Positions 5,230 to 26,595 of a stretch of DNA of 33,197 bases are shown piece by piece; position 1 is the stretch's first letter; the number at the start of each line of letters is the position of its first letter. Both the position numbers and the translations under genes were made by a program. The notes below the pieces were generated by a model. That model saw nothing but the letters and a program-made list of their open reading frames with translations, was not told the origin of the DNA and searched no databases. The DNA comes from Chloroflexota bacterium (GTDB lineage Bacteria > Chloroflexota > Limnocylindria > QHBO01), in contig JAPSGM010000001.1 in assembly GCA_031177555.1 (NCBI GenBank), forward strand, positions 1-33,197. Reading direction: 5' to 3'.

Positions 5230-5972
5230 CGGTCCGCCAGGAGCTGCACCAGGCCCGCGTAGTCCTCTGGCGTATCGATCTCATGCCACCACGTCTCCCC
5301 GATCTCGCAGCCCGTCAACGATCCGGTCGTCGCGGCCAGCTCGCTCACCAGATCGTGCCAGATGGCGCGCCCTGCGGATTTCGCCTCGCGCTCCACGAAG
5401 TCGGTCAGCAGCCCGTCGAACATGGCGCGCGCTTCCTCGCCGCAGGCCAGGAACAGGCCGGCGGACACGCCGTGGGTTCGTTCGTCGGCCAGCCCCTTGC
5501 CGACCGCGGCGACCGTGCCATCGCCGCGAAGCGAGACCCGCACGTCATCGGTCTCGGCCACCCGCCTCGAGAAGCCCAGGCGGAACCCGCCGGCGTCGAC
5601 CGACCCGACCGCGCGAAAGGCTTCCGGCCGGTAGTAGGTGTCGCCGTTGCCGATCATGATGTCGGCTGACGTGATGACGTCCCGCGCGGCCCACAGCGAC
5701 CAGATCGGGCCGTGCGAGGCGAAGTCGGGGTTGTAGCGCGTCTCGACCGCGCCCGCCCTGGCATGCCGCGCGACCTCCTGCTCAATCGCGTCGGAACAAT
5801 ACCCGGTGACGACCACGACGCGGCGCACGGCGCCCGACAGGTGCGCGTTGCGAAGGTTCTCGCCGAGCAGCGATCCGCCATCGGGCGTGGGGACCAGGGC
5901 CTTGGGGATCGGGCCCGTGACCGACGCCAGGCGGGTGCCCTGGCCGGCGGCGAGCAGAATGAGGTCCGTCAT
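5226..5972 (-). CDS. Sugar/alcohol-phosphate nucleotidyltransferase, LicC-like (probable cytidylyltransferase)
   Basis: 248 aa. LILLAAGQGTRL...PKALV is the nucleotide-binding signature. The YNPDFASHGPIWSLW block resembles phosphocholine-type cytidylyltransferases. There is an ATGA overlap with the stop of the TagF-like gene. Confidence 0.75.
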   Translation of the reverse strand: MTDLILLAAGQGTRLASVTGPIPKALVPTPDGGSLLGENLRNAHLSGAVRRVVVVTGYCSDAIEQEVARHARAGAVETRYNPDFASHGPIWSLWAARDVITSADIMIGNGDTYYRPEAFRAVGSVDAGGFRLGFSRRVAETDDVRVSLRGDGTVAAVGKGLADERTHGVSAGLFLACGEEARAMFDGLLTDFVEREAKSAGRAIWHDLVSELAATTGSLTGCEIGETWWHEIDTPEDYAGLVQLLADR

Positions 5973-7324
5973 CGGTTCGACGCCGATGCGGCTTTGCCGG
6001 CAGCGGCGCCGGTGACCGCCCCGACCCCGGCCCCGACCTCGGCCCCGACCGCAAGGACGATGCGCTCGCAGCTGCCCGGCGAGTCCGCGTAGCCGCTTCG
6101 CTCCCTGATCAGCGCGGGCAATGCCAGGTCCGCGGCGTCGTCACCGTCCGCGGCGCTCCGGATCGCGTCGAGCAGCGAGGGCCACTCGACGTGATGCTGG
6201 CCCCGGGTCCAGCTCTCGAGTGGCTCGTAGAGATCGCGGCTCTGGCCGTGCTCGGCGATGTCGGGGGCGAAGACGTGGATGGGTCGGGCGAGGATCGCGT
6301 AGTCGAATGCAGCGCTCGAGTAATCGGTGACGAGGGCATCGGCGATGCGCAGCAGGCAGTTCACGTCGGCGATCTCGTCGCCGAGCATGCGCACGTGGCC
6401 ATCCAGCGCGAGGCGGTCGCGAAAGACGCCGGGATCGTTGTTGGGATGCGGCTTCACGACGAGCCTGACCCTGGACCCGCCGAGCGCCCGCTCCACCTCC
6501 GCTGCGTCGAGGGCCGGCAACCAGGCCTCGTCCCCCTCCTCGCGCCAGGTCGGCAGCCACAGGACGACGTGGTCATCGGGCGCCAGCCCCAGGCGAGCGC
6601 GGAGGTCGCCGCGGACGACGCGGTCGTACGCGGGGCCGCCCAGGATGACGTCGAACCGTGGCGTTCCGAGGACCCGGATCCGGTCGGGCGGGCCACCGAA
6701 GGCGCTCAGGTACCACGTCTTCGCCAGCTCACCGGGAGCGACCACCATGTCGACCTGTCCCAGCCGGCGGGACATGAACCAGCGGTACGCGCGCGCGGCC
6801 ACGCCGCCGACGGCGGAGCCGCCCATCAGGCGCGACTGGTCCACGTCGAGCAGCACGCGCTTGAGCCCCTTTCCGTGCCGAAGGTGGACGAGGAAGGCGC
6901 CGCTCAGGTTCGCGGTCTCGAGATCCTCGAAGCCGGTGCAGATGAACGCCGCGCCGGCGCGGCGATGGACGTCGGCGGACTCCCGCGTGCCGTGGATGGC
7001 GGAGCGCAGGCCGGCGTCGTGTGCCTGGCGAGCGTCGCGCTCGTTCGCCGCGATCCACCACGTCTCGATCTGGGGGTGGGCGTGCAGGAGGTGCTCGGCA
7101 AGATATCGCGTGTTGTCGCGGAATCCTCGCCGGTTCCCCAGGATCCAGGTGCGGGCCTCGCGGCGGCCGAAGCGGCTCAGGACGCGTCCAGGCAGGCCGG
7201 CCGCACGCCTGCCGGCCTTGTGCAGCATCCCTGCCCGTGAGCCAGCCCTGCCTCGCGGCTCGTCATGCCCGCGTTCGGCGATCCCGCCGTCCTCCCGAGC
7301 GTCGCTCGGCGGTCCGATGGCCAC
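5969..7324 (-). CDS. CDP-alcohol phosphotransferase of the TagB/TagF family (Glyphos_transf; CDP-glycerol glycerophosphotransferase-like)
   Basis: This is the 3' part of ORF 5969-7852. It carries LGTPRFD, LWLPTWRE, VVKPHPNN and LVTDYSSAAFDYAIL. I set the start at GTG 7324 because AGGAGA (7335-7330) lies 5 nt upstream. ATG 7228 is an alternative start. The rest of the track ORF overlaps sulfotransferase 7342-8241 and looks like shadow sequence. Confidence 0.85.
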   Translation of the reverse strand: MAIGPPSDAREDGGIAERGHDEPRGRAGSRAGMLHKAGRRAAGLPGRVLSRFGRREARTWILGNRRGFRDNTRYLAEHLLHAHPQIETWWIAANERDARQAHDAGLRSAIHGTRESADVHRRAGAAFICTGFEDLETANLSGAFLVHLRHGKGLKRVLLDVDQSRLMGGSAVGGVAARAYRWFMSRRLGQVDMVVAPGELAKTWYLSAFGGPPDRIRVLGTPRFDVILGGPAYDRVVRGDLRARLGLAPDDHVVLWLPTWREEGDEAWLPALDAAEVERALGGSRVRLVVKPHPNNDPGVFRDRLALDGHVRMLGDEIADVNCLLRIADALVTDYSSAAFDYAILARPIHVFAPDIAEHGQSRDLYEPLESWTRGQHHVEWPSLLDAIRSAADGDDAADLALPALIRERSGYADSPGSCERIVLAVGAEVGAGVGAVTGAAAGKAASASNR

Positions 7325-7341
7325 GTCCGTCTCCTGGCCGT

Positions 7342-8241
7342 CTAGCCCGATGCCGCCACGGGCATGCGCCAGCCGGGCAGCGGTCGCGTGAGGGTCTCGA
7401 CGTAGGCGATGTCCCGCTCGAAATGGGCCAGGAGCCGCTCCTGCAGCTGGGCGGGCATCGCAGGATACGCGGCCCTCTTCATGTTGCGCGCCTCGAGCGC
7501 ATTCCGCAGCCGGTGAGCGGGTCGTCGAACGAACCGCGGCAGGAAGCTCCAGCTGCGGTAGCGCGTGCCGGCGATGGCCCGATGCAGGAGTCGGCTGCTG
7601 GGGACGGCATGCGGGTTGTACTCCGCGTCGAACGACGGCAGGAACCCGTCGTCGACGCCCACGAAGCGGCAGATCCTGCGGTAGGTCTCGGGCGGATCGC
7701 TCCGCAGGTCGTCGTACAGGACGAGGTGCACGCGCTCGGGCCCCAGGGCATCGAGGTAACGGCGCACGTGGCGCTCGTAGCTGCTCATGTACAGCAGGTA
7801 GCGAAGGTCCGGGTGGTCCTCGACGACCTCCGAGAAGGGCGGCATCGGCCACCCGCGCTTCCAGTTGTGCCAGTAATGCGAGTACGCCCGCTCGACCGGC
7901 TGACGCAGCACGAAGATGACCTTGAGCCCGGGGACGTGCTTCTCCATCAGCTCGGGGCCGTCCAAGGCGCCGAGGTAGTGCGTGCTGGCTTCGCCACGCG
8001 CCAGGCAGTCCTCTCCCCCCTCGAACAGGCTCTCGTACCAGGCGATGCCCTGGCTGTACGTGTCCTCGCGCAACGGACCGATGATGCGCACGCCCGGCTC
8101 CGGAACATTAGCGTCGCGCGTGAGGAAGTGGGGTTCCTTCACGGGGCTCATCCAGACCTGCGGGTGAGCGTCGAGGAGGCGCCAGAGGGCCGTGGTCCCT
8201 GACTTCGGTGCTCCTCCGATCACGAAGGTCGGCAGGGTCAA
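7342..8241 (-). CDS. Sulfotransferase-domain protein
   Basis: 299 aa with a TTG start. FVIGGAPKSGTTALWRLL is the 5'-PSB block and IFVLRQPVERAYSHYWHN is the 3'-PB block. No TM helix or signal peptide. Confidence 0.88.
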   Translation of the reverse strand: MTLPTFVIGGAPKSGTTALWRLLDAHPQVWMSPVKEPHFLTRDANVPEPGVRIIGPLREDTYSQGIAWYESLFEGGEDCLARGEASTHYLGALDGPELMEKHVPGLKVIFVLRQPVERAYSHYWHNWKRGWPMPPFSEVVEDHPDLRYLLYMSSYERHVRRYLDALGPERVHLVLYDDLRSDPPETYRRICRFVGVDDGFLPSFDAEYNPHAVPSSRLLHRAIAGTRYRSWSFLPRFVRRPAHRLRNALEARNMKRAAYPAMPAQLQERLLAHFERDIAYVETLTRPLPGWRMPVAASG

Positions 8242-8353: not shown

Positions 8354-9865
8354 CTACCGGGCACCCACCGGCGGCGGTCGGGACACCGCACGTCGCCCGA
8401 CGCCGAGGATCTCGCGGACGAGGTCTCGCTCCACCAGCAGCATGGCCAGGACGAACACCATGGCGCCGGCCAGCACCTCCGCGGCCAGCAGCATGGCCGG
8501 GCTCGCAGGGGCCACCGCCTTGACTGCCGCCACCGCCACGGCCATGGCTGCGGTGGCCAGGGCGGTCCCTCGCAGCTGGGCCAGCATCGCCCCGGCCGGA
8601 ACGCCCGCGTACCTCGAGACCCACGCGAGGTTGAGCGGGATCAAGAGGTATCCGCGTGCGACGAACGCGGCGGCGACGGCGAGGATCCCGATCTGGACCG
8701 CGATCAGGAACCCGACCACGTTCACCACCGTGGTGATGAGCCTGAATCGAAAGACGACGCCGGGGTGCCCGGCGGCGTTCAGCAGGGCGCCGCTGAAGGC
8801 CTGCAGCGTGAGGACCGGACCGATGAGGAACAGGATGCCGGCCACCGGGCCGCTCGGCGCCCAGCGGTCCCCGAAGAGCGTGACGGTGAGCTCGGTCGAG
8901 ACCAGGGCGAGCCCGATGTAGCCGGGCAGGATGATCGCGCCCGCGGCGCGCGTGACGCGAAGGTAGGCGCGACGCATCCGTTCCGGGTCCGACTGGAGGC
9001 GAGAGAAGGCCGGAAAGGTGACCTTGCGCGCCACGTTGACCAGCATCACCTCGGTCACGTCCAGGATGCGGTAGCCGACCGAGTAGAAGCCGAGCGGCGT
9101 GGTGCCGAGGAATGAGCCGATGAGCAGGTTGTCGACGTTCCGGCTCGCGAAGTTCAGGATGTCCGAGCCCAGGATGTTCACCCCGAAGCGGAAGAGCTCC
9201 CGGAACGTGTCCCACGAGTAGTCTCGACCTGGACGCCATGGGCTGACCGCCCATAACAGGACCATCGACACGAATGCGCCGGCCACCTGCTGCCCGACGA
9301 GGGACCACACGCCGAATCCGAGGAAGGCCATGGCGATGCCCACCGCCCCGCCGGCCGCGATCCCGCCGAGGGCCCGCATGGCCAGCGCCCGGAAGTTCAG
9401 GCTGCGCCGCAGGAGCGCAATCTGGATGCTGCCGAGCGCGGACAGCAGGAACGTGCCGGAGAGGACCTGCAGGATCGGCTGCAGGTCGGGCTCCCCCAAC
9501 AGGAAGGCGATGGGGATGGCGAGAAGGATGCCGGCCAGCGCCAGCAGCCCGCCCGTGCTGAGCGCGACCCAGAACGCGGTGTCGATATGCCGCCGGGTGA
9601 GAACTGGTCGCTGGATGAGCGCATCGCCCAGGCCCTGGTCCACGACCAGCTGGGCCAGGTTGACGAACACCGCGGCCAGCGCCACCAGGCCGAAGTCGTC
9701 CGGGACGAGCAGCCGGGCGAGAACGACGAAGATCGTCAGGTTGAGAAGCTGACGACCCCACGTGTGGATGAAGGTCCACGTCAGGCCGCGGGCTATCTGA
9801 CCCCCAAGCCCGGACTCTCCCGGCTCGCCCGGAGCCGGCCCGAGGCCCTCCGCACGGTCAGGCAA
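8354..9865 (-). CDS. wzx: Wzx-type polysaccharide flippase (MOP superfamily)
   Basis: 503 aa with a TTG start and about 14 hydrophobic helices. The N-terminal block LNLTIFVVLARLLVPDDFGLVALAAVF...GLGDALIQR is typical of polysaccharide-biosynthesis flippases. Confidence 0.85.
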   Translation of the reverse strand: MPDRAEGLGPAPGEPGESGLGGQIARGLTWTFIHTWGRQLLNLTIFVVLARLLVPDDFGLVALAAVFVNLAQLVVDQGLGDALIQRPVLTRRHIDTAFWVALSTGGLLALAGILLAIPIAFLLGEPDLQPILQVLSGTFLLSALGSIQIALLRRSLNFRALAMRALGGIAAGGAVGIAMAFLGFGVWSLVGQQVAGAFVSMVLLWAVSPWRPGRDYSWDTFRELFRFGVNILGSDILNFASRNVDNLLIGSFLGTTPLGFYSVGYRILDVTEVMLVNVARKVTFPAFSRLQSDPERMRRAYLRVTRAAGAIILPGYIGLALVSTELTVTLFGDRWAPSGPVAGILFLIGPVLTLQAFSGALLNAAGHPGVVFRFRLITTVVNVVGFLIAVQIGILAVAAAFVARGYLLIPLNLAWVSRYAGVPAGAMLAQLRGTALATAAMAVAVAAVKAVAPASPAMLLAAEVLAGAMVFVLAMLLVERDLVREILGVGRRAVSRPPPVGAR

Positions 9866-16636: not shown

Positions 16637-16661
16637 TCCGGCGCCGGCGCATACTCGGGCC

Positions 16662-17186
16662 ATGGACGCAGCGGCGCGGCGGCCCATCGAGGTGACCGTC
16701 GAGATCCCCACGGGCAGCCGCGACAAGTACGAGTACGACCACGTCCGCGGGCGATACGTGGTCGACCACGTGCTCTACTCGAGCGTGCACTACCCGTGCG
16801 ACTACGGCTTCATCGAGGGCAGCCTTGCCGAGGATGGCGATCCGCTGGACGTGCTGATCGTGATCGAGCCCACCTTTCCCGGCTGCGTGGTGCGCGCCCG
16901 GCCCATCGGCGTGCTGGACATGAAGGACGACAAGGGCCACGACTACAAGATCCTGGCGGTGGCGCACGACGACCCGCCCTGGGAGATGGTCGCGGGGCTC
17001 GACGACATCTCGCCGCACCGCCTGCGCGAGATCGAGAACTTCTTCGGAACCTACAAGACCCTCGAAGGCCGGGAGACCGATGTCTCCGGCTGGCTGGGAG
17101 TCGACGAGGCGTGGCGAATCATCGATGCCGCCATGGCCGCCCACGGAGACGAGAGCATCGAGGCCGAGCCGGGGACCTGGCGCTAG
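16662..17186 (+). CDS. ppa: Inorganic pyrophosphatase, family I
   Basis: Starts at ATG 16662 inside track ORF 16365-17186 and encodes 174 aa. It carries EIPTGSRDKYEYD, YPCDYGFI, EDGDPLDVLIV and YKILAV. Confidence 0.93.
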   Translation: MDAAARRPIEVTVEIPTGSRDKYEYDHVRGRYVVDHVLYSSVHYPCDYGFIEGSLAEDGDPLDVLIVIEPTFPGCVVRARPIGVLDMKDDKGHDYKILAVAHDDPPWEMVAGLDDISPHRLREIENFFGTYKTLEGRETDVSGWLGVDEAWRIIDAAMAAHGDESIEAEPGTWR

Positions 17187-18253
17187 CCCGCCAGCGGGGG
17201 GTCGAGGTCGCCCAAGCGCAGGGGCGTGCGCGGCACGAGGTCACGCGCCGCCCGCCGCCCGATCACGTCGTCCAGGCGCAGCGGCGAGATGCCGCCCTCC
17301 GGCCGCATCGCGTCCAGGTCCGCCGCCGCGATCCGCTCGCCCGCGCGGATGGCGCGCGTGACAACCAGCGAGCGGCGGGCCACCCGCCTCGCGTCCTCCT
17401 CTGCCACGCGGGGCTGCTTGAGGCCGTCGCCCAGCGCGACGTGGGCCTCGCGCACCGCGGCGGCCATGGCGGCGAAGGCATCGGGCTCGAGCGAGGCCGC
17501 GTGGTCCGGCCCGGGCATGGCGCGGTCCAGGGTCAGGTGCTTCTCGATCAGGGCCGCGCCCAGGGACGCCGCCGCGACCGCCACCGCGGTGCCGGGAGTG
17601 TGGTCGCTGTAGCCGACCGGCACACCGAAGCGCTCGCGCAGGGTGGCCATCGCCCGCAGGTTCGCATCGCCGGTGGCGGCCGGGTACGCGCTGGTGCAGT
17701 GCAGCAGCACCAGCGGCGGGTCGCCATGCGCGCGCAGGTCGTCCACCACGGTCGCGACCTCGTCGAGCGTGGCCATGCCCGTCGACAGCAGGACCGGCCT
17801 GCCGTGGGCGGCGACGGCCCGCAGCAGGACGAGGTTGGTCAGGTCCCCCGAGCCGACCTTGAAGGCGGGCACGCCCATCTCGGCCAGCACCTCCACCGAT
17901 GCCAGGTCGAAGGGCGTCGAGAGGAGGACCATGCCCAGCTCGGCGGTGCGCGCGGAGCACGCCCGCAGCGCGTCGGCCGACAGCTCCACGGCCCGCAGCA
18001 TCTCGACCTGGGATGCGGCGGCCGCGCGCGCCTGCTGGTAGGCGGCCTGGGGAGCGTTGGGCGTCGCCACCGCATCGGCCGAGAAGGTCTGGAACTTCAC
18101 CGCGTCGGCGCCCGAGGCGGCCGCCGCCTCCACCAGCCGCATGGCGAGCTCGGCGGAGCCGTTGTGGTTGACGCCGGCCTCGGCGACGACGAGCGGCGGC
18201 TCTCCCGCGCCGATGCGACGGCCGGCGATCTCGACCGTGCGCGCCGTGGACAC
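17183..18253 (-). CDS. neuB: Nonulosonic acid synthase (NeuB/LegI/PseI family) with C-terminal SAF domain
   Basis: 356 aa. The GTG start lies 3 nt after the upstream stop. It carries VVAEAGVNHNGS and AVKFQTF, plus a C-terminal SAF-like region RSLVVTRAIRAGERIAAADLDAMRP. Confidence 0.9.
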   Translation of the reverse strand: MSTARTVEIAGRRIGAGEPPLVVAEAGVNHNGSAELAMRLVEAAAASGADAVKFQTFSADAVATPNAPQAAYQQARAAAASQVEMLRAVELSADALRACSARTAELGMVLLSTPFDLASVEVLAEMGVPAFKVGSGDLTNLVLLRAVAAHGRPVLLSTGMATLDEVATVVDDLRAHGDPPLVLLHCTSAYPAATGDANLRAMATLRERFGVPVGYSDHTPGTAVAVAAASLGAALIEKHLTLDRAMPGPDHAASLEPDAFAAMAAAVREAHVALGDGLKQPRVAEEDARRVARRSLVVTRAIRAGERIAAADLDAMRPEGGISPLRLDDVIGRRAARDLVPRTPLRLGDLDPPLAG

Positions 18254-18256: not shown

Positions 18257-19282
18257 TCAGCCCAGCGTCGGCAGCTGCTCGGGGCGCAGCCAGCCGGCTG
18301 CGTCCAGCAGGTCGCGCAGCTGCGACCGGTCCAGCAGCGGCTCGTCGGCGCGGCCCCCGCTCACCGTCCGGCCCGGCGCGCGCGGCTCCCGGCCGGGCCG
18401 CAGCACGTACATGTCGTCCACCTCGTCGGCGACGAGCGCCTCGGTTTCGGTCAGGAGCGTCTCGTGCCACTTCTCGCCCGGTCGGGCGCCGATGGTCTCG
18501 ACCGCGATCGCATCGGCGCGATAGCCGAAGAGCGGCGCATAGGCCTCGACCAGCACCTCGACCAGGTCGCCGACCCGGATGCGCGGCATCTTGAGGATGA
18601 AGACCTCGCCGCCCTCCATGCGCGACATCGCGGCGAAGCAGAGCCGCACGGCATCGGCGAGCGGCATCATGTAGCGGCTCATCTCCGGGTCGGTGACCGT
18701 CACCGGGCCCCCGCGGGCCACCTGGCCGCGGATGAGCGGCACCAGCGACCCGCGCGAGCCGATGACGTTGCCGAAGCGGACCGATGCGAAGCGCGTCGCA
18801 ACCGGCCCCTTGTAGTGCTCGGCCGCCGAGAACAGGCGCTCCTGCAGGAGCTTGGTGGCGCCCATCACGTTGGTCGGGTCGACCGCCTTGTCGGTGCCGA
18901 TGGCCAGCACCCGCTCGACGCCGGCGTCGATCGCCGCCTCGACCACGTTCTGGGTGCCGCGCACGTTCGTCTCGGTCGCCTCGAACGGGTTGAACTCGCT
19001 GGCCGGCACATGCTTCATGGCCGCCGCGTGGAAGACCAGCTCGACGCCGGACATGGCCCGATCCATCCGCCGCCGGTCGCGCACGTCGCCGATGAGCATC
19101 CGCAGCCGCGGCTCGTCGCGGTGCCGCTGCGCCAGCTCGAACTGCTTGGAATCGTCGCGCGAGATGACGCGTACCACCTGCGGCGTATCGGCCAGCAGCG
19201 CCTCGACGATGGCGCCGCCGATCGACCCGGTCCCGCCGGTCACCAGCACGCGACGGTCGGCGAAGAAGGAGGCCGCGCTCAT
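18257..19282 (-). CDS. UDP-N-acetylglucosamine 4,6-dehydratase (Polysacc_synt_2; PseB/FlaA1/PglF-type SDR)
   Basis: Starts at ATG 19282 inside ORF 18257-19753, with an ATGA overlap with the aminotransferase stop. It carries VLVTGGTGSIGGAIV, FHAAAMKHVP and TDKAVDPTNVMGATK. Confidence 0.88.
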   Translation of the reverse strand: MSAASFFADRRVLVTGGTGSIGGAIVEALLADTPQVVRVISRDDSKQFELAQRHRDEPRLRMLIGDVRDRRRMDRAMSGVELVFHAAAMKHVPASEFNPFEATETNVRGTQNVVEAAIDAGVERVLAIGTDKAVDPTNVMGATKLLQERLFSAAEHYKGPVATRFASVRFGNVIGSRGSLVPLIRGQVARGGPVTVTDPEMSRYMMPLADAVRLCFAAMSRMEGGEVFILKMPRIRVGDLVEVLVEAYAPLFGYRADAIAVETIGARPGEKWHETLLTETEALVADEVDDMYVLRPGREPRAPGRTVSGGRADEPLLDRSQLRDLLDAAGWLRPEQLPTLG

Positions 19283-20421
19283 GCCGCGCCCTGCTCGCGG
19301 ACGGCCGAGACCAGCGCCTCGCAGACGCGGTCGAGCTGCTCGTCGGTGAGCCGCGAGGAGAAGGGGAGCGCCAGCGTGGACGTGGCCACCCGCTCGGTCA
19401 CCGGGAAGTCGCCCGGCCGGAAGCCGAAGTGCTCGCGATAGAACGGCTGCAGGTGGATCGGGCTGAAGTAGGGTCTCGCCTGGACGCCGCGCTCGGCCAG
19501 CTGGCCGATGAGCCGGTCCCGGTCGATGCGCTGGTCCAGGCGGAGCACGTGGACGAACCAGTCGACCTTCGCACCGGGCGCCGCCTCCGGCAGCCGCAGC
19601 CAGTCGTGGCCGGACAGCCGCTCGCGATAGCCCGCGACGACCCGCCGGCGGCCGGCCCCCAGCTCGTCGCGACGCCGCAGCTGGGCCACCCCCAGGGCGG
19701 CGGACATCTCGTCGAGGCGGTAGTTGAACCCCAGGCGCACGTGCCGCAGCCACGTGCCGTCCTGGTCGCGCCCCTGGTTGCGCATGCTGCGGATCGCATC
19801 GGCGAGCTCGTCGTCATCGGTCACTACCATGCCGCCCTCCCCGGTGGTGATCTGCTTGTTCGGGTAGAAGGCGAAGGTGCCGATGCGGCCCCAGCCGCCC
19901 ATCGGGCGTCCGTCCAGCGTGGAGCCGAGCGCCTCGCACGCATCCTCGATGAGCGGCACGCCGGCGCGCTCCGCAAGCGCCGCGAGGTCGCGCAGCCGGC
20001 ACGGGTTGCCGAAGACGTCCACCGGCAGGACGGCGCGCGTCGCGCCGCTGATCGCCGCTTCGGCGCGCTCCGGGTCGAGGCCCAGCGTCTCCTCCTCGAC
20101 GTCGGCGAAGGCTGGCGTCGCCCCCTCGTACAGCACGCAGTTGCTGCTGGCCACGAAGCTGAAGGGAGTCGTGACCACCTCGTCTCCGGGACCGATGCCC
20201 AGGGCTCGCACGGCGAGGTGCAGGGCGGCCGTGCCGCTGCTCACCGCGACGGCGTGCCGCGTCCGGGCGAGCGCCGCCACGCCACGCTCGAACTCCTCGG
20301 TGAACGGGCCCATGGCCAGCGTGTCGCCGGCGAGCACCTGGCCCACCAGCTCGCGCTCCAGCGTCCCGATGTCCGGCTGCGCCAGCGGGACGCGGGTCAC
20401 CGTGCGGGCCACGTTCGTCAT
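19279..20421 (-). CDS. DegT/DnrJ/EryC1-family PLP aminotransferase (sugar-nucleotide 4-aminotransferase, LegC/PglE/PseC-like)
   Basis: 380 aa. It carries LAQPDIG...E, AVSSGTAALHLA and FAFYPNKQITTGEGGMVVT (the PLP-lysine block). Confidence 0.9.
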   Translation of the reverse strand: MTNVARTVTRVPLAQPDIGTLERELVGQVLAGDTLAMGPFTEEFERGVAALARTRHAVAVSSGTAALHLAVRALGIGPGDEVVTTPFSFVASSNCVLYEGATPAFADVEEETLGLDPERAEAAISGATRAVLPVDVFGNPCRLRDLAALAERAGVPLIEDACEALGSTLDGRPMGGWGRIGTFAFYPNKQITTGEGGMVVTDDDELADAIRSMRNQGRDQDGTWLRHVRLGFNYRLDEMSAALGVAQLRRRDELGAGRRRVVAGYRERLSGHDWLRLPEAAPGAKVDWFVHVLRLDQRIDRDRLIGQLAERGVQARPYFSPIHLQPFYREHFGFRPGDFPVTERVATSTLALPFSSRLTDEQLDRVCEALVSAVREQGAA

Positions 20422-20430
20422 CGGCCCGCC

Positions 20431-20436
20431 ATTCTA
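20431..20436 (-). promoter_or_regulatory. Putative internal -10 hexamer TAGAAT ahead of the aminotransferase gene
   Basis: The minus strand reads TGA (neuC stop), TGGCCGG, TAGAAT, GGCGGGCCG (9 nt), then ATG at 20421. Confidence 0.3.
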
Positions 20437-20443
20437 CCGGCCA

Positions 20444-21601
20444 TCAGGCGGCCGACCCCGGCGGCCGCTTGGCGCGGAGGCGCTCGTCGAGCGGCATGCC
20501 CGCCAGCAGGTCCAGGATGCGAGGGGCGGCACGGCCGTCGCCGTACGGCGACGTGCGTGACAGGCCGTCGCGGAATCGCGGCTCGATGGCGCGCCGGATG
20601 GCGTCGGCGACGGCGGCGGCGTCCGGCGGCGCGTCGATGACGTTGTCGCCGCGCGTGCGTCCCTCCTGCCGCCGCCCGACGTTCACCGCCGGGAGCCCCA
20701 GCAGCGGCGCCTCGATGATCGCGCTGGACGAGTTGCCGACCAGCGCCGCCGCCCCGCCCAGCAGGGTCGCGAACTCGGCGCGCGGCAGCGACGCCACCGC
20801 CCGGAGCGGCAGGTCGGCGCGCCGCAGGCGATCGATCATGGCGCGGCCGCCGGCATCGGCGTTGGGGAAGATGACCAGCGCCGGGAGCCCGACCGCGCGC
20901 ACGCCGTCCAGGGTAGCGTCGAGGTCCTGCGCGGCCCGCTCCGCGCCGACCGTCTCGGGGTGCTGCATCACCAGCAGGTACGCGCCGGCCGCCGGGAGGC
21001 CGTGCCGCGTGCGCAGCGCCCCGCGGTCGCCGCTCGCCTCCTCGCGCAGCCGGTCGAGTCCCGGCGCCCCGACGCGCCGGATGCGCCACGCCTCCTCGCC
21101 CATCGCCTCCAGGCGTCGAGCGGCGTCCTCGGTGGCCACCAGGTGCAGGTTCGCGATGCGCGTGACGAGATCCCGCACGGTGTCGTCCACGGCGCCGCGC
21201 GTCACCTCGCCGCCGTGCAGGTGCGCCACGGCGACGCCGGCGTGCAGGGCGGCGAGGCCGGCGGCCAGCTGCTCCCCGCGGTCGCCGAGCAGCAGCAGCC
21301 AGTCCGGGCGCTCCCCGGCGACGACCGGCGCCATGCCCATGACCGCCTGCCCGATGGCCGCGGCCATCTCGACCCGGCTGTCGCCGGCCGGCGTGCAGGG
21401 CACCTCGGCGGCGATCGCGTGGCCGGAGCGGCGCACCTCCTCGACCGTGCGGCCGAAACGGGGGTCGAGGTGCATCGCCGTCACCAGCAGGCTTGCGTCG
21501 AACCCTGGAGCGCGGCGGCGTGCCTCGTCCAGGACCGGCAGCCACACGCCGAAGTCGGCGCGGGAGCCCGTCACCGCCATGAGACGCAGCGTGGCGGTCA
21601 T
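20444..21601 (-). CDS. neuC: Hydrolysing UDP-sugar 2-epimerase (NeuC/LegG family)
   Basis: 385 aa. It carries LMAVTGSRADFG, VAHLHGGEVTRGAVDD and LVGNSSSAIIEAPLLGLPAVNVGRRQEGR. The ATG overlaps the upstream stop (ATGA). Confidence 0.88.
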   Translation of the reverse strand: MTATLRLMAVTGSRADFGVWLPVLDEARRRAPGFDASLLVTAMHLDPRFGRTVEEVRRSGHAIAAEVPCTPAGDSRVEMAAAIGQAVMGMAPVVAGERPDWLLLLGDRGEQLAAGLAALHAGVAVAHLHGGEVTRGAVDDTVRDLVTRIANLHLVATEDAARRLEAMGEEAWRIRRVGAPGLDRLREEASGDRGALRTRHGLPAAGAYLLVMQHPETVGAERAAQDLDATLDGVRAVGLPALVIFPNADAGGRAMIDRLRRADLPLRAVASLPRAEFATLLGGAAALVGNSSSAIIEAPLLGLPAVNVGRRQEGRTRGDNVIDAPPDAAAVADAIRRAIEPRFRDGLSRTSPYGDGRAAPRILDLLAGMPLDERLRAKRPPGSAA

Positions 21602-23067
21602 GCCGCCGAGCGCCGCGGGTTCCCGCGCGCCAGCGAGAGCATCAGCCGCGCCGCGCGCTCCGAGGCGCGTCCGTCCAGCGCTCCCAGCCGCTCCGCCGCG
21701 ACCCGGCGCGCGCGCTCGACGGCCCTCCGCCTCGCAGCCTCGGCCCGCAGCTCGGATGCGGCTCGGGCGGCCGACGCCTCGTCCGATGCAGCCACGGCCA
21801 GGCCGTCCGCCGCGAAGTCGACCGGCGCCACGCCGCCCGGGTTGACGGCAATGGCCGGGATGCCGGCCACGGCCGCCTCGAACACCGCGTTCGACCAGCC
21901 GGTCACCAGCAGCGCCGCGCCGGCGATCTCGCCATGCAGGCCCGTCCCGGCGGCCAGCCTCACCGGCACTTCGGTCCCTGGCATGCCGGCGACGAGGCCG
22001 GCTGCCGTGCCGGACCGCTCCGCCGGGTGGGGCGCCACCACCAGCTCGCCGGCCCCGAACGCACCGGCCGCCGCGACCGCCGCGCGGAAGCAGGCCGCCA
22101 GGACGCCGTGGGTCATGGCGCCGGTGGGATACTGGGCGGCGAACACCACGCGCCGCTCGCCCAGCGAGGCCGCGGCGCCGACGGCGCCGAGCCGAACCAG
22201 CGGGTCGAAGCGCGGCGCGCCGATCTCGACGATCCGCTCCGGCGGAATCCCCGCGGCGCGCAGCACGGCCGTGGCGCGAGGCCCGTAGGTCGCCATGCAG
22301 TCGTACGCCGCCCCCTCGATGGCCGTCGCGTCGGCCGCCTCGGCGTGCGGCAAGTCCAGGCTGGGAATGCCGCGGCGACGCGCCACCTCGGGCAGCAGGC
22401 GCGCCCAGGTCCCGATCTCGTCGAGCCCCGCCAGCAGGCCGGGGCCCCAGCGGCGGGCGACCGAGAGCAGCGCCGCCGCGCCGAGCTCGATCCGTCCCGC
22501 CTCGTCGGCGGCGACCTGGCGCAGCTCGGCGGCCCGCGCCTCCCCGACCCGGCGCGCCCAGGCGCCGCCGGCCGCGGCCAGGGCCCGCGCGACGATCGGC
22601 CCATGCGCCATGGCGCGCAACGCGAGCGACGGTTCCATGAGCTCGACCAGCCGCGGCGCCACCGCGTGCGCCGGCGCGACCGCCGCGGCCCGACCGACAC
22701 GAATCAGCGCCAGCGACTCGCCGGCGGTCGACTGGAGCTCCGCCTCGACCTGGGCGAGGACCGGGTAGTGGGTCGGCTCGCGCACCAGCACGACCAGCGG
22801 CGCGCCACCGGTCCGCGGCAGCCGCCAGGCCATCAGCCCCACGCCCGCGGCGGCGGCGGGCCGCAGGACGGCGGCCGCTCCGGAGGCGAGCCGGCCGAGC
22901 GAGCCCTTCTCGGCACGGCGCTCGTCCCGGATCGCGAAGAACAGCTGCTGCTCCAGCGCCCCGCCGAGCTCCACGCCCTCGAACCGGATCGCGCCCGGGG
23001 ATGCCCGCCGCAGGTCCGTCACGAGCTCGCGCGCCTGGTCCCGCGCGGCGGCGGGATCGGGGCTCAC
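21598..23067 (-). CDS. Unclassified GT-B-like protein; candidate CMP-nonulosonate (legionaminic-acid) transferase
   Basis: Only the C-terminal 489 codons of the 855-aa track ORF are free of overlap with better-supported genes. I set the start to GTG 23067, which forms a GTGA overlap with the stop of the neuD-like gene. The stop overlaps the neuC start. I cannot name a family. IGAPRFDPL, VVAPHPAERS and LVTGWSNAVFEAAVAGIPAI resemble the HP-motif and nucleotide-binding blocks of cytidine-nucleotide-dependent GT-B enzymes (TagF, KpsS/KpsC, bacterial sialyltransferases). Confidence 0.6.
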   Translation of the reverse strand: MSPDPAAARDQARELVTDLRRASPGAIRFEGVELGGALEQQLFFAIRDERRAEKGSLGRLASGAAAVLRPAAAAGVGLMAWRLPRTGGAPLVVLVREPTHYPVLAQVEAELQSTAGESLALIRVGRAAAVAPAHAVAPRLVELMEPSLALRAMAHGPIVARALAAAGGAWARRVGEARAAELRQVAADEAGRIELGAAALLSVARRWGPGLLAGLDEIGTWARLLPEVARRRGIPSLDLPHAEAADATAIEGAAYDCMATYGPRATAVLRAAGIPPERIVEIGAPRFDPLVRLGAVGAAASLGERRVVFAAQYPTGAMTHGVLAACFRAAVAAAGAFGAGELVVAPHPAERSGTAAGLVAGMPGTEVPVRLAAGTGLHGEIAGAALLVTGWSNAVFEAAVAGIPAIAVNPGGVAPVDFAADGLAVAASDEASAARAASELRAEAARRRAVERARRVAAERLGALDGRASERAARLMLSLARGNPRRSAA

Positions 23068-23696
23068 GTCGCCATCTGGCGCGCCGGGACGCCGGCCACC
23101 CGCGCGCCGGCCGGCACGTCGTCGACGACCATGGCGCCCCCGGCTACGACCGCCCACTCGCCGATGCGGCAGCCCTCCCGGACGGCGGCGCCGATGCCGA
23201 CGAAGGCGCCCTCGCCCAAGGTCACGCGCCCGGCCAGGTGCGCGCCGGGTGCCACCGTGGCGTGCGGGCCGACCACGTCGTCGTGGTCCACGCTGGCCCC
23301 CGTGTTGACGACCGCATCGGCGCCAACCCTGGCCGCAAGACCGATGACGGCGCCGGCGCAGACCATCGCGCCCGGCTCGACGGACGCGCCGGCCAGCAGG
23401 TGGGCGGTGGGATGGACGGCGGCGACCGGCGTCAGGCCCAGGGCCAGGCAGCGCTCGAACGCCTCGCGGCGGGCGTGGTTGTCGCCCAGCGCCACGACGA
23501 AGCGCGTATCGCCCGACGCCCACTCCGGCTGGCCGGCCAGGGAGCCGAGGACCGGCAGCCCCTCGACCTCGCGCGCGACCGACGCCGGAACTGGGCCGGC
23601 TTCCACGAAGCCGCCCGGCGCCTCTCCGGCGGCGCGCAGGATCTCCAGGACGACGCGCCCGTGGTCGCCCGCCCCGACGATGACGAGGGGGCTCAT
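23064..23696 (-). CDS. neuD: Hexapeptide-repeat sugar N-acetyltransferase (NeuD/PglD/LegH family)
   Basis: 210 aa, starting at ATG 23696 with an ATGA overlap with the neuA-like stop. LVIVGAGDHGRVVLE forms the N-terminal domain. It is followed by left-handed beta-helix repeats (GASVEPGAMVCAGAVIG, VGADAVVNTGASVDHD, GAFVGIGAAV). Confidence 0.85.
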   Translation of the reverse strand: MSPLVIVGAGDHGRVVLEILRAAGEAPGGFVEAGPVPASVAREVEGLPVLGSLAGQPEWASGDTRFVVALGDNHARREAFERCLALGLTPVAAVHPTAHLLAGASVEPGAMVCAGAVIGLAARVGADAVVNTGASVDHDDVVGPHATVAPGAHLAGRVTLGEGAFVGIGAAVREGCRIGEWAVVAGGAMVVDDVPAGARVAGVPARQMAT

Positions 23697-24352
23697 CGGC
23701 GGCCGGCCCGCCAGGCGCGCCGCGCCGCCTGCAGGTCCGCCTCCGAGTCCACGTCGATTGCCGCGGGGCCGCCGGTGACGTGGGCCGCGGGGCACTCGTC
23801 GAGCAGCCGTCCCTCGGCGAGCAGATGTCGGCGCGTCGCGTACACGCCGCCGGTGATGCGGACCGCCTCGGCGTCCGGCGCGGCGGTACGCGTGAACCGT
23901 CCGGCCGACAGCCAGCCGGCGGCGCCGGCCGGGAGGTCGAGCGGCGCGACGCTGACCGCCGAGCGCACCGCCGGGTCGTCGAGCAGGGCGACGACGGCGT
24001 CGATCTCGGCGCCGGGCCGCAGGGGCGTGGTGGCCTGCAGCGTGAGGACGACGTCCACCGGCTCGCCGCGCTCCTCCAGCCACGAGACCGCGTGCCGGAT
24101 GACGGGCAGCGTGGGGGTGTCGTCCGCGGCGAGCTCGGCCGGTCGCAGGAACGGGGCTTCGGCACCGGCCCGGGCGGCGGCGCGGGCGATCGCCGGATCG
24201 TCGGTGGAGACGATGACCCTGTCGACCCGCCGTGCCTCGCGCGCCGCGCGGATCGTGTGCGCGATCAGCGGCTGCCCGCCGAGCAGCCGCAGGTGCTTCC
24301 GCGGCAGCCGCTTCGAGCCGCCCCGGGCCGGGATGATCGCCACCGTCGCCAT
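23693..24352 (-). CDS. neuA: Acylneuraminate/nonulosonate cytidylyltransferase (CMP-sugar synthetase, NeuA/LegF family)
   Basis: Starts at ATG 24352 inside ORF 23693-24637 and encodes 219 aa. It carries MATVAIIPARGGSKRLPRKHLRLLGGQPLIAHTI and VIVSTDD. Confidence 0.88.
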   Translation of the reverse strand: MATVAIIPARGGSKRLPRKHLRLLGGQPLIAHTIRAAREARRVDRVIVSTDDPAIARAAARAGAEAPFLRPAELAADDTPTLPVIRHAVSWLEERGEPVDVVLTLQATTPLRPGAEIDAVVALLDDPAVRSAVSVAPLDLPAGAAGWLSAGRFTRTAAPDAEAVRITGGVYATRRHLLAEGRLLDECPAAHVTGGPAAIDVDSEADLQAARRAWRAGRR

Positions 24353-24360
24353 CGGGCTGC

Positions 24361-24366: not shown

Positions 24367-24400
24367 GGGCCGCCCCCCGCCCCGCCCCGCCGCGGGCCGA

Positions 24401-24406: not shown

Positions 24407-24413
24407 CCGGCCG

Positions 24414-25946
24414 GTGAGCAGCCCCTCCCCCGCCGGCCGGCCGTGCCGACGCGGCGCGACGGTGTCGGCCGGCACGCTCATCGCCCTCGGCGTCCTGGCA
24501 GCGCTGCTGCTCGTGCTGGTCGTCGGCGCGCGGGTCGCGACGCCGCTGTTCCTCGCGTCCGGCGCCGGGATCCTCCTGGTGGTCGCCTTTCTGGGCCACC
24601 GCCATCCACGGTCCGCCCTGGTCGCCGTCGTGCTCATGCCGATCGTCGACCGCTACCTCGTGGGCCTGCTGGTCCCGGCGTCGCTGCGCACGACCACCGG
24701 CTTCCTCTCGGAGGCGCTACTGGTGGTGGTCGCGGCGAGCATCGGGCTCAGGGCATGGCGGCAGGGATCGCTCCTCCCGGCGCTCCGGCATCCGGCCGTC
24801 GTCCTCGTGGCGGCCTTCGCCCTGGTCGCCGCGGCGTCGGCGGCGCTGAACGGCGTGCCGCCGCCGATCGCGGTGGCCGGCATCGGCTTCACCATCGAGG
24901 CCGTCGCGCTGTTCGTGCTGCCGCGCATGATCGGCTTCGACATCGGGCAGGCCAGGCTGGCCTTCATGGGCTTCACGGGCATGGCCCTGCTGGCGGCGGG
25001 GCTGGCGCTGGCGCAGGTGCTCCTGGACGCCGACGTCCTCGGCCTGCAGTCGTTCACCGGGCGCTTCAGCGAGGGCCATCGCGTGGCCGCCTTCCTGGTC
25101 AACCCGAACATGCTGGGGGCCGTGCTGGCGATGGCCATCCCGATGCCGCTGCTGGCCGCGGTCCGCACCGACGCCCGCCGGCGGCGGGTGCTGTATGGCG
25201 CCGTGACCTTCGTGCTGGCGCTGGCGCTGCTGTACACCTTCTCGCGGGGAGCCTGGCTCGGGCTGGCGCTGTCCGCTGCGGTCCTGGCGGTCGCGGTGGA
25301 CCGGCGCGCGCTGGCCGGGCTGGCCCTGGTGGGGGTCCTCGTCATCGCCACCGCCCTGGTGCTCCCGCGCCACGTCCTGGACCCCGATGCCGGCGACGTC
25401 GAGTTCGACCTGGCGGCGGCCATCCTCGGCCGGCTGGACACCCTCGCGGAGGGGACCGACCTGCGGCTCCAGTTCGTGAGCAACGCGTCGCCGATCATCG
25501 CCGATCACCCGATCGTGGGCGCGGGGCCGGGACGCTACGGCGGCGCGGTGGCCTGGCGCTTCGGGAGCCCCCTCTACGACGACTACACCGATGGGTCGGT
25601 CCCCGAGGGCCGAACCGTCGACAACTTCTGGCTCCACCTGCTCGTCGAGGTCGGCGTGATCGGCACGCTGCTCTTCGCCGCGGCCTTGGCGGCCGCCACC
25701 TGGGGCGCGCTCGCCGCCGCACGGGCGGCTGACGGCTGGGGGCGGGTCCTGCCCGCGGCCGCCGCCGCGATCGCCATCGTCATCGCCATCGACTCGCTGG
25801 CCGAGATGCTGCTGGAGGGCAACACGACGTCGTTCGCGGTGTGGTTCTTCCTGGGGTTGACCTCGGCCCTCGTGGCCCGATCGGCCGAGGGCGGGGCGGC
25901 AGGCGCCGCCGGGGATCTCGCGGCTAGTACGCTCCGCGCCCGCTGA
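24414..25946 (+). CDS. O-antigen ligase/polymerase-like membrane protein (Wzy_C domain), copy 2
   Basis: This is the 3' part of the 981-aa track ORF. I set the start at GTG 24414, upstream of the first TM helix GTLIALGVLAALLLVLVV. GTG 24462 is an alternative start. It carries LLYTFSRGAWLGLA, ADHPIVGAGPGRYG and VDNFWLHLLVEVGVIG. Confidence 0.82.
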   Translation: MSSPSPAGRPCRRGATVSAGTLIALGVLAALLLVLVVGARVATPLFLASGAGILLVVAFLGHRHPRSALVAVVLMPIVDRYLVGLLVPASLRTTTGFLSEALLVVVAASIGLRAWRQGSLLPALRHPAVVLVAAFALVAAASAALNGVPPPIAVAGIGFTIEAVALFVLPRMIGFDIGQARLAFMGFTGMALLAAGLALAQVLLDADVLGLQSFTGRFSEGHRVAAFLVNPNMLGAVLAMAIPMPLLAAVRTDARRRRVLYGAVTFVLALALLYTFSRGAWLGLALSAAVLAVAVDRRALAGLALVGVLVIATALVLPRHVLDPDAGDVEFDLAAAILGRLDTLAEGTDLRLQFVSNASPIIADHPIVGAGPGRYGGAVAWRFGSPLYDDYTDGSVPEGRTVDNFWLHLLVEVGVIGTLLFAAALAAATWGALAAARAADGWGRVLPAAAAAIAIVIAIDSLAEMLLEGNTTSFAVWFFLGLTSALVARSAEGGAAGAAGDLAASTLRAR

Positions 25947-26595
25947 GCACCGCACCCACCGTGCGGGCCAGGATGCCCGCATCCATGGCCAGGCTCCGCT
26001 CGTTGACGTAGCGGACGTCGAACTGGACGCGCTCCTCGAAGGTGCGGTCCGCCCGACCGTTCACCTGCCACAGCCCGGTGATGCCGGGGCGAACGCGCAG
26101 GATGAGCTCCGCCTCCGGGCGGCCTTCTAGCTCGCCGGGGAAGTACGGCCGCGGCCCGATCAGGCTCATCTCGCCGGTCAGCACGTTGACCAGCTGGGGC
26201 AGCTCGTCGAGCGACATGCGGCGCAGGATGGCGCCCACCCGCGTGCGGCGCGGATCGTCGCGCAGCTTGCGGCGCTCGCCGTACTCCAGCGCCCACTCCT
26301 CGTCGACGGTCAGGAGCTCCTCGAGGTGGTGGTGGCTCCCGTCGCGCATCGTGCGGAACTTCAGGACGACGATGGGCTTGCCGAAGCGGCCCATGCGGTG
26401 GCACTTGTAGATGATCGGCAGGCCCGTGTCGATCCAGATCGCCACCGCGATGATCACGAAGAACGGCAACAGGATCGCGAGCAGGACAGCCGACCCGACA
26501 ATGTCAACGAGGCGCTTGGTGAACCAGTAGAGGAGCTCTCCGAGCGAGGCCGGGCGCGTCGAGGCAACGGCTTGTTGCTGCGAGATCTGCTCCAA
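25924..26595 (-). CDS. Small monotopic undecaprenyl-phosphate sugar-phosphotransferase (Bac_transf, PglC-like initiating PGT)
   Basis: 223 aa. The TTG start at 26595 has AGGAG 6 nt upstream. There is one N-terminal hydrophobic helix, LLAILLPFFVIIAVAIWI. It also carries KFRTM and DELPQLVNVLTGEMSLIGPRP. Confidence 0.9.
   Translation of the reverse strand: MEQISQQQAVASTRPASLGELLYWFTKRLVDIVGSAVLLAILLPFFVIIAVAIWIDTGLPIIYKCHRMGRFGKPIVVLKFRTMRDGSHHHLEELLTVDEEWALEYGERRKLRDDPRRTRVGAILRRMSLDELPQLVNVLTGEMSLIGPRPYFPGELEGRPEAELILRVRPGITGLWQVNGRADRTFEERVQFDVRYVNERSLAMDAGILARTVGAVLSGRGAY

Follow-up and report, generated by a model that had tools for sequence, protein, structure and literature searches.

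A GT-B protein encoded in a nonulosonic-acid operon of a Chloroflexota bacterium is a candidate CMP-nonulosonate transferase

A nonulosonic-acid (NulO) operon of an uncultured Chloroflexota bacterium of the Limnocylindria lineage encodes an unclassified protein of 489 amino acids, hereafter the target, which on balance is probably a transferase of a cytidine monophosphate (CMP)-activated, legionaminic-type NulO. The operon lies in a stretch of 33,197 nucleotides (assembly GCA_031177555.1, contig JAPSGM010000001.1, positions 1 to 33,197), referred to here as the window. The assignment, to a soluble or peripheral cytoplasmic enzyme of the GT-B type, draws on sequence comparison and on analogy with characterised enzymes. 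The gene is real, its product has a GT-B fold and conserved motifs, its homologues are linked to NulO loci, and it is remotely homologous to a group that includes BFO_1060 of Tannerella forsythia, the NCBIfam family TIGR04396 and TagB-like proteins. BFO_1060 is the copy of TFUB4_00887 in strain FDC 92A2, to which it is identical.

The coding sequence is as follows.

21598..23067, minus strand: target gene, GTG start, TGA stop, 490 codons including the stop (489 amino acids), GT-B-type, unclassified.

Because the G+C content of the whole window is high (68-79%) and long open reading frames (ORFs) are found in all frames, ORF length alone is uninformative. The codon-position G+C in the target frame is approximately 0.83/0.60/0.94 from ~21600 to ~22900, a signature shared with the neighbouring genes, and the frame signal changes at ~23000 and ~21550, matching both proposed ends of the gene. 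When 40 homologues are aligned, they begin no more than a few residues from the target GTG, and R9 is kept in at least 90% of them; therefore, the start is not far downstream. A GTGA at 23064-23067 joins the target start to the stop of the upstream gene, and an ATGA at 21598-21601 joins the target stop (TGA, 21598-21600) to the start of the downstream gene, in agreement with the coupling at both ends described in a first-pass annotation made from the sequence alone. That annotation had also considered that the true start might lie far downstream and that the ORF might be largely non-coding. The frame-specific G+C, the homologue N-termini with the conserved R9 and the confidence of the structural model described below dispel this doubt and rule out a spurious high-G+C ORF or a late start. 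The target is a genuine, conserved and well-folded gene product.

The protein is basic (isoelectric point ~10.2) and rich in alanine (25%), and contains no transmembrane segment, that is, no hydrophobic stretch once the Ala-rich stretches are discounted; a membrane protein is ruled out on the same grounds. No Pfam or NCBIfam model reached its cut-off in a search with the single protein, and a single-sequence search found no match in the PDB, which bears out the earlier statement that the protein cannot be assigned to a known family. The best sub-threshold matches were TIGR04396 (18.3 bits, E=1.1e-3; cut-off 125), Glyco_trans_1_4 (15 bits) and Epimerase_2 (10.9 bits, E=0.2; cut-off 30.6). An AlphaFold2 model built with a 41-sequence alignment has a predicted local distance difference test (pLDDT) score of 93.1 and a predicted template modelling (pTM) score of 0.91. 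It consists of an N-terminal three-helix module, a Rossmann-like N-terminal domain (N-domain) with a helical insertion and a canonical Rossmann C-terminal domain (C-domain). The predicted fold is thus GT-B, with two Rossmann-like domains and an inter-domain cleft, and a Foldseek search of the PDB with this model gave 176 matches at E<=1e-3, of which the 50 matches listed were all GT-B proteins. The GT-B-like character proposed in the first-pass annotation is borne out by the model and by these matches. Modelled alone, the N-terminal half (residues 1-282) gave a pLDDT of 94 and no PDB match at E<=1e-3; neither a structural relative of the N-terminal helical modules nor a TagF-type N-domain was found in the Foldseek search with this half.

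The conserved elements of the protein, with their positions in the window, are listed below.

22813..23067, minus strand: N-terminal helical module, residues 1-85, with the block ALEQQLFFALRD; E39 is invariant, Q40, F43 and R47 are conserved in at least 90% of sequences.
22447..22695, minus strand: long helical insertion, residues 125-207, between strands 2 and 3 of the N-terminal Rossmann domain, as placed by DSSP of both models.
22411..22422, minus strand: D216-E217-I-G219, where an N-domain strand ends; E217 does not vary, and at least 90% of sequences keep D216 and G219.
22336..22350, minus strand: P240-H241-A242-E243-A244, within L-D-L-P-H-A-E-A; H241, A242 and E243 are invariant in the family.
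22300..22305, minus strand: Y255-D256; D256 does not vary within the family and is kept by at least 90% of the superfamily.
22204..22221, minus strand: G283-A-P-R-F-D288, inter-domain GxPRxD motif; G283 is invariant in the superfamily, where D288 is conserved in at least 90%.
22024..22029, minus strand: H347-P348, HP motif in the nucleotide-binding domain at the C-terminus; every family member has it, as do at least 90% of superfamily sequences.
21874..21903, minus strand: T389-G-W-S392-N-A-V-F-E397-A398, phosphate/ribose-binding loop and helix typical of GT-B C-domains; S392 is invariant in the superfamily.

G283 and D288 are both invariant in the target family, as are T389, S392 and A398, and E397 is conserved in at least 90% of its members; the invariant residues of the family fall in blocks that line GT-B clefts. 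The D216-E217-I-G219 element resembles the D/E-D/E-G motif, but with one extra residue. H241 aligns with the histidine that the wider superfamily has in its QHG/LQHG motif and is, by this alignment, a candidate general base. Parts of the N-terminal helical module are also matched in distant superfamily members. The blocks IGAPRFDPL, VVAPHPAERS and LVTGWSNAVFEAAVAGIPAI that the first-pass annotation had picked out are all located in the target, and those that it had read in the TagF-like gene of the same window (5969..7852, minus strand), namely LGTPRFD, VVKPHPNN and LVTDYSS, are all located there; the conservation of the His-Pro pair, on which it had placed weight, holds both in the family and beyond it.

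A word-indexed search returned 96 homologue clusters (E 1e-289 to 6e-45; 34-74% identity), nearly all of them named "hypothetical protein", and in an exhaustive search of 50%-identity representatives, 567 proteins had E<=1e-3, of which 67 had E<=1e-30. When one genome per species was scanned, 19 loci were found, 18 of them in metagenome-assembled genomes (MAGs) of Chloroflexota/Limnocylindria and one in a Nocardioidaceae MAG. Beyond E ~1e-20, the relatives are proteins of 500-650 amino acids that match target residues 200-480, and often 80-485. Over both Rossmann domains, the profile of the target family matches these longer proteins with E values of 1e-27 to 1e-53, and the homology of the family to the superfamily that they form is therefore secure. 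In the superfamily, the counterpart of the PHAEA block reads (L/V)QHG, QDG or similar, and the other motifs read K-x-H-P-x-E, G-x-P-R-(F/Y/W)-D and T-x-x-S-T-x-x-x-E-A. Across 48 diverse superfamily sequences, G283 and S392 were found to be invariant and D256, D288, H347 and P348 to be conserved in at least 90%, while E243 is specific to the target subfamily and variable elsewhere. A second homologue search, with the superfamily alignment A2, recovered the same family and one new protein (P0236), a third, with the distant member P0176, recovered eight unnamed proteins, and a tblastn search of plasmids with the target found nothing.

Members of the superfamily match the Pfam families Glyphos_transf, Epimerase_2, Capsule_synth, Glycos_transf_1 and DUF6716. 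Of 17 wider relatives that were scanned, 15 had as their best NCBIfam match either NF046086, the family of BFO_1060 (22-101 bits; best E=5e-29), or TIGR04396 (up to 85 bits); in these relatives, both models outscore wecB/NeuC, yet stay below their curated cut-offs. Within the target family, 28 of 41 members match TIGR04326, 14 match TIGR04396 (best 1e-10) and six match NF046086 (best 5.8e-8). No scanned protein, whether of the family or among the wider relatives, reaches the NF046086 cut-off of 200 bits, and the target fails every curated membership threshold tried: NF046086, TIGR04396 (125 bits), Glyphos_transf (22.1 bits) and Epimerase_2 (30.6 bits). A literature search on DUF6716, TIGR04396, TIGR04326 and NF046086 found no papers. 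The target family is thus a divergent branch, restricted in lineage, of a superfamily that is poorly curated, and does not stand alone as a new family. The earlier proposal of a candidate new family stands insofar as no curated family claims the target; it does not stand as regards isolation, the superfamily to which the branch belongs being nearest, below threshold, to NF046086 and TIGR04396.

The gene belongs to a seven-gene NulO operon on the minus strand (24352 to 17183), the other members of which are listed in the order of transcription.

23693..24352, minus strand: NulO cytidylyltransferase, first gene of the operon (CTP_transf_3; best NCBIfam match PseF, below threshold).
23064..23696, minus strand: PglD/NeuD-type N-acetyltransferase (TIGR03570, above cut-off); it overlaps the stop of the preceding gene at its own start (ATGA) and the target start at its own stop (GTGA).
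20444..21601, minus strand: NeuC/LegG-type hydrolysing 2-epimerase (TIGR03568, 338 bits against a cut-off of 236); its start overlaps the target stop (ATGA).
19279..20421, minus strand: DegT-family aminotransferase, PseC/LegC-like.
18257..19282, minus strand: PseB/PglF-type uridine diphosphate (UDP)-N-acetylglucosamine (GlcNAc) 4,6-dehydratase (Polysacc_synt_2).
17183..18253, minus strand: NeuB-family nonulosonate synthase, last gene of the operon (TIGR03569, above cut-off).

The junctions are, in order, ATGA, GTGA, ATGA, a 22-nucleotide gap, ATGA and a 3-nucleotide gap. The single long upstream gene proposed in the first-pass annotation (an ORF of ~513 amino acids) is in fact two ATGA-coupled genes, the acetyltransferase (23064..23696) and the cytidylyltransferase (23693..24352), and the long ORFs around 23064-24352 are artefacts of 78% G+C. 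All genes other than the target fall in clear NulO-pathway families, which agrees with the earlier observation that the target is the only operon gene with no obvious pathway role. In the legionaminic-acid pathway of Campylobacter jejuni, as reportedly worked out by Schoenhofen et al. in 2009, six such enzymes suffice to produce a CMP-5,7-diacetamido-nonulosonate. Since all six legionaminic-type pathway enzymes are already encoded in the operon, sugar synthesis does not need the target. The combination of NeuC-type and PglD-type enzymes, in place of PseG and PseH, is indicative of the legionaminic series. Nevertheless, this stereochemistry of the sugar is tentative, because the dehydratase, the aminotransferase and the cytidylyltransferase all score below equivalog thresholds; the term "legionaminic" used in the first-pass annotation accords with the gene content, its sole basis.

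Two observations concern the surroundings of the operon. The region 20000-25000 has 76-79% G+C, compared with 68-73% elsewhere in the window, which could reflect a different origin or simply proteins rich in Ala, Arg and Gly. An inorganic pyrophosphatase gene (16365-17186, plus strand) adjoins the operon, and such a gene is likewise found near NulO genes in 17 of 25 loci of the family; pulling cytidine triphosphate (CTP)-dependent activation forward by removal of pyrophosphate would fit this position.

The genomic context of the family was compared in 25 fetched loci carrying family members. A NeuB homologue lies within 10 kb in 23 of them, the two exceptions being short contigs with Wzy_C, an O-antigen polymerase/ligase-like gene, directly downstream. 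Of the co-occurrence with neuA/neuB that the first-pass annotation had raised, that with neuB is thus widespread, and the family is almost always found within or next to NulO loci in which the six-enzyme pathway is already complete. A separate full-length NeuC/LegG is encoded in every fully annotated locus, wherever the flanks are long enough; therefore, the target does not replace this enzyme. The position of the target homologue is shuffled among loci: it lies between acetyltransferase and epimerase in the window and in L014, after the cytidylyltransferase in L006, L007 and L012, before it in L015, L018 and L023, and after NeuB in L019, L022 and L025. In L009, L011 and L016 it is located away from the biosynthetic genes, adjoining or overlapping Wzy_C, which is also nearby in L004 and L013 and is a recurrent neighbour of the family in other genomes. 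The Limnocylindrales MAG DAIOXD01 carries two paralogues of the target (L009 2832-4253 and L013 1970-3406; 45-46% identity to it), each followed by a Wzy_C gene, directly in L009 and ~1.2 kb downstream in L013, an arrangement that looks like duplicated transferase-polymerase pairs. A gene for a Bac_transf, a polyprenyl-phosphate sugar-phosphate transferase, is also found near family members in L002, L012, L014, L018, L023 and L024. Apart from the target homologue, L001 and L003 contain no glycosyltransferase-like gene within 10 kb of their NulO and Wzy_C genes.

The loci differ in the upstream part of the pathway. Ten of them contain a PtmE-like CBS-nucleotidyltransferase and a different dehydratase, whereas the window and 13 other loci contain the PseB/PglF-type dehydratase and no PtmE. 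In C. jejuni, the PtmE-type arrangement marks the route through guanosine diphosphate (GDP)-GlcNAc. Since the family accompanies both routes, an enzyme acting after their convergence at the CMP-sugar fits best. The association extends to the wider superfamily: three of the four distant members with informative contigs (P0190, P0236 and P0179) lie in NulO loci. A relative on a Bacillus thuringiensis plasmid, 1.4 kb from a NeuB-family gene, scores 75 bits against NF046086; when it is aligned with the family, its LQHG lies opposite PHAE.

Further features were seen in these loci. P0236 (L027 6774-9341), with 855 amino acids nearly twice as long as the target, is encoded between a cytidylyltransferase and NeuB, and its extra region has no Pfam match. 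An ORF of 1740 amino acids without a Pfam match (L026 1166-6388) lies in a NulO/glycan locus that also holds a distant target relative. Several NulO loci carry a D-3-phosphoglycerate-dehydrogenase-like gene (2-Hacid_dh, PGDH_inter and ACT; L001 8396-9999, L003 8428-10032, L002 20636-21455) directly upstream of the target homologue, with GFO_IDH_MocA and short-chain dehydrogenase genes nearby; it may supply an N-acyl group such as glyceroyl, as found on the pseudaminic acid of T. forsythia.

Two genes next to the operon bear on the proposed function.

24414..25946, plus strand, divergent from the operon: Wzy_C (O-antigen polymerase/ligase-like) membrane protein; its start is at 24333 or 24414.
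25924..26595, minus strand: Bac_transf initiating polyprenyl-phosphate sugar-phosphate transferase, which probably primes the same glycan.

For the target, we infer which donor and acceptor it uses, which residues are catalytic and which stereochemistry the sugar has. As donor, the enzyme would use what its own operon produces, namely a CMP-activated 5,7-diacetamido nonulosonic acid of the legionaminic-acid type, and it would pass the sugar to a lipid-linked acceptor, probably a polyprenyl-diphosphate-linked sugar made by the adjacent Bac_transf. Polymerisation or ligation of the product would fall to the adjacent Wzy_C, and the glycan would finally be fixed to the wall by the LCP enzymes of the window. 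By analogy with TagF/TagB and sialyltransferases, the C-terminal Rossmann domain would bind CMP, with H347-P348 and the T389/S392 loop at the phosphate and E397 at the ribose, while H241 of the PHAEA block, or D216/E217, may act as the general base that deprotonates the acceptor hydroxyl. These residue roles follow those of TagF and sialyltransferases and the discussion in PMC5420450. A bolder proposal, which we put forward only tentatively, is that the target is the founding member of a glycosyltransferase family of its own, consisting of legionaminic-type NulO transferases that occur specifically in monoderm Chloroflexota (Limnocylindria) and are distinguished by a P-H-A-E catalytic block, the N-terminal helical module and the helical insertion, and that with only Bac_transf and Wzy_C it constitutes a minimal pathway for a NulO-rich wall glycopolymer. 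As the sole glycosyltransferase in L001 and L003, the target homologue might build a poly-NulO chain there. A new family number would be plausible if the activity were shown, because new glycosyltransferase families keep being defined for ulosonic-acid transferases, such as GT118 (KpsS1) and GT140 (KrkA) (PMC12887879).

Several results weigh against the assignment as a CMP-NulO transferase. The link to BFO_1060 is transitive, being made through NCBIfam hidden Markov model (HMM) matches and mainly through the C-terminal nucleotide-binding domain, and the target itself has no NF046086 match at E<=10 and only 18.3 bits to TIGR04396. The UDP-GlcNAc 2-epimerases lead the Foldseek matches listed for the whole protein (1v4v, E=3.7e-10, template modelling (TM) score 0.51/0.64, ~14% identity), ahead of MGD1 (E=3.7e-8) and the ribitol-phosphate polymerase TarL (8va1, E=2.2e-7); they also lead, weakly, for the N-terminal half, where the best match is NeuC (5xvs, E=4e-3, TM 0.40). 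The structural comparison envisaged in the first-pass annotation as a possible refutation, by a non-transferase fold or an unrelated family, therefore gave a divided answer: the fold is GT-B, but the closest solved structures are epimerases and not transferases. Sub-threshold Pfam matches (E<0.01) among the 41 family members are to Epimerase_2 (13/41, best 1e-8) about as often as to DUF6716 (14/41), and more often than to Glyphos_transf (2/41). Some epimerases also carry an HP motif (VHPRT in 8sxw), and thus HP does not identify a CMP donor. P0176, among the distant superfamily members, has no NulO genes nearby. Lastly, deletion of SpsB, a TagB-like protein of Bacillus subtilis, left surface legionaminic acid unchanged, SpsB being dispensable for its transfer (PMC7439481).

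Part of this evidence would also suit a TagB/TagF-like glycosyl- or phosphotransferase that acts on the same NulO glycan with another donor, either another sugar or an alditol-phosphate and possibly onto NulO itself, the NulO being moved by another enzyme. The P0176 locus is in keeping with such a function, as are the Glyphos_transf matches among superfamily members and the precedent of SpsB, which is not required for legionaminic-acid transfer yet affects the spore surface (PMC7439481). Moreover, the C-domain of the target is similar to that of the TagF-like protein of the window: a single pairwise BLASTP comparison gave E=1e-4, and the family profile matched the protein with a probability of 94% (E=1.4e-7), with the GxPRxD, HP and T..S loop motifs in register, so that the likeness is better than chance. 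This TagF-like gene was considered as the NulO transferase and ruled out, as its matches are confined to TarL/TarF models and it is accompanied by a nucleotidyltransferase of its own; because of the former, the target is the only BFO_1060-related candidate in the window. We nevertheless consider another donor unlikely. CMP-NulO is the only CMP- or cytidine diphosphate (CDP)-linked donor made locally in most loci, L001-L006 have neither a TagD-like gene nor any other CDP-alditol gene alongside the family member, L001 and L003 contain no other nearby glycosyltransferase able to move NulO, and the linkage to neuB is tight (23/25 loci).

The resemblance to epimerases raises the alternative of an Epimerase_2-like enzyme that is not a transferase (a second hydrolysing epimerase, a PseG-like nucleoside diphosphate (NDP)-sugar hydrolase or a CMP-NulO hydrolase), providing an extra step or control point in NulO synthesis. 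Besides the Foldseek and Epimerase_2 results given above, it is favoured by the family profile, which matches an alignment of LegG with a probability of 95%, and by a low-confidence local alignment that places E217, E243 and D246 within 1-2 positions of the GDR, GGE and DD carboxylates; a global profile alignment to the LegG alignment was discarded, its N-domain part being obviously wrong. However, the LegG profile alignment is confident in the C-domain only, conservation does not extend to the GTRPE loop, and E243 is subfamily-specific and variable across the superfamily. As judged from the models, the structural resemblance is modest, amounting to only general similarity at the GT-B level (TM 0.5-0.65, ~14% identity). 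Full-length NeuC/LegG is always present too and the pathway lacks no enzyme when the target is left aside, family members occur with the PtmE-type and PseB/PglF-type routes alike and are frequently coupled to Wzy_C instead of biosynthetic genes, and superfamily members score higher to BFO_1060/TIGR04396 than to wecB/NeuC. An enzyme of this kind is thus rather improbable. A catalytically inactive GT-B scaffold organising the NulO enzymes or the Wzy_C machinery, for which the N-terminal helical module and helical insertion without known counterpart and the tight translational coupling of the genes might be cited, is very improbable, because the invariant polar residues E217, H241, E243, D256, D288, H347, T389 and S392 cluster in GT-B active-site motifs of the cleft, a conservation typical of an active enzyme.

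The remainder of the window is a large wall-glycopolymer locus with two GT4 genes, a second Wzy_C, three sulfotransferases and a TarL-like gene with its own nucleotidyltransferase, as well as a flippase, a UDP-glucose dehydrogenase, an AT3-SGNH acyltransferase and two LCP ligases. The three sulfotransferase genes (4279-5229, 7342-8241 and 9899-10828, all on the minus strand) are interleaved with the TarL/TagF-like gene (here 5969..~7340), the nucleotidyltransferase (5226..5972) and the flippase (8354..9865), and this cluster suggests a sulfated, teichoic-acid-like wall polymer in this Chloroflexota bacterium. An ORF of 336 amino acids without a Pfam match (872-1882, minus strand) is flanked by a glucose/sorbosone-dehydrogenase-like gene and a GT4 gene, and its G+C content at third codon positions (GC3) gives a mixed signal.

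To our knowledge, very few legionaminic- or pseudaminic-acid transferases have been described: Maf and FlmG, which act on flagellins, KpsS1 (GT118), and the T. forsythia pair, identified by genetics only. Such transferases are wanted for the preparation of bacterial sialic-acid mimics, glycoconjugate vaccines and probes. If the target does transfer a legionaminic-type sugar, it would be a distinct, compact and soluble candidate with about 100 natural variants, the TIGR04396, TIGR04326 and DUF6716 groups would gain a link to function, and soil and freshwater Chloroflexota would be found to decorate their walls with NulO sugars. If it is epimerase-like instead, it would represent an unrecognised step in NulO biosynthesis.

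Among known systems, the UDP-GlcNAc 2-epimerases (NeuC/LegG/WecB) provide the closest solved structures and share profile similarity with the target over the C-domain, but they differ in the GTRPE loop, which is absent from the target, whose first loop reads VREPTH, and a genuine NeuC/LegG is encoded alongside. TIGR04396 and TIGR04326 ("surface carbohydrate biosynthesis proteins") and DUF6716 ("putative glycosyltransferase") are the families most often matched, all far below their cut-offs, and are themselves uncharacterised. The donors of bacterial sialyl- and ulosonic-acid transferases are CMP-activated, and HP and D/E-D/E-G motifs occur in several of these enzymes (PMC5420450; PMC12887879). 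The target had no sequence or profile match in the PDB to solved structures of GT38, GT52, GT80, GT107 (KpsC/KpsS) or GT118 (KpsS1), and none of these families was present among the 50 Foldseek matches listed for each model; Capsule_synth was matched weakly, in distant superfamily members only. TagF, TagB and TarL (Glyphos_transf, PF04464) are likewise GT-B proteins, in which GxPRxD, (K)xHP and TxxSS/TGWSN..(F)(E/D)A align with the target motifs in the same order; TagF has both the HP histidine of its C-domain (H584) and a catalytic histidine in an xHG motif of its N-domain (H444). The target does not match Glyphos_transf (gathering score 22.1 bits), no N-domain homology was detected between the target family and TagF/TagB/TarL, and, in contrast to these proteins, the family is linked to no gene for CDP-alditol synthesis. 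SpsB is also TagB-like, with DEG and HP motifs and a position beside legionaminic-acid genes (PMC7439481); having similar motifs and context yet not being needed for legionaminic-acid transfer, it serves as a warning and not as a model.

The nearest parallel is with the T. forsythia transferases. Deletion of TFUB4_00887 removes the terminal legionaminic-acid derivative from the O-glycan of this species (Tomek et al., PMC5420450) and deletion of Tanf_01245 removes the pseudaminic-acid derivative, the CMP-activated sugar persisting in both cases; the two proteins have TagB-like homology and D/E-D/E-G and HP motifs, and the evidence for them is genetic, with no in vitro assay reported (PMC5420450). 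Proteins of the BFO_1060 type resemble the target in being GT-B/TagB-like and encoded beside CMP-NulO genes; their HP and D/E-D/E-G motifs may correspond to H347-P348 and, with its extra residue, D216-E217-I-G219 of the target. They differ in length and origin (~442-445 amino acids in Bacteroidota, against 489 in Chloroflexota), and in the target a PHAEA block stands where the superfamily has QHG, with an N-terminal helical module and a helical insertion in addition. The similarity of its relatives to NF046086 lies mostly in the C-domain, as judged by HMM matches. The target is a solid genome-mining candidate, in kind like the T. forsythia BFO_1060-type transferases and more distantly like TagB/TagF, with features of its own in the PHAEA block, the N-terminal helical module, the helical insertion and a near-restriction to Limnocylindria.

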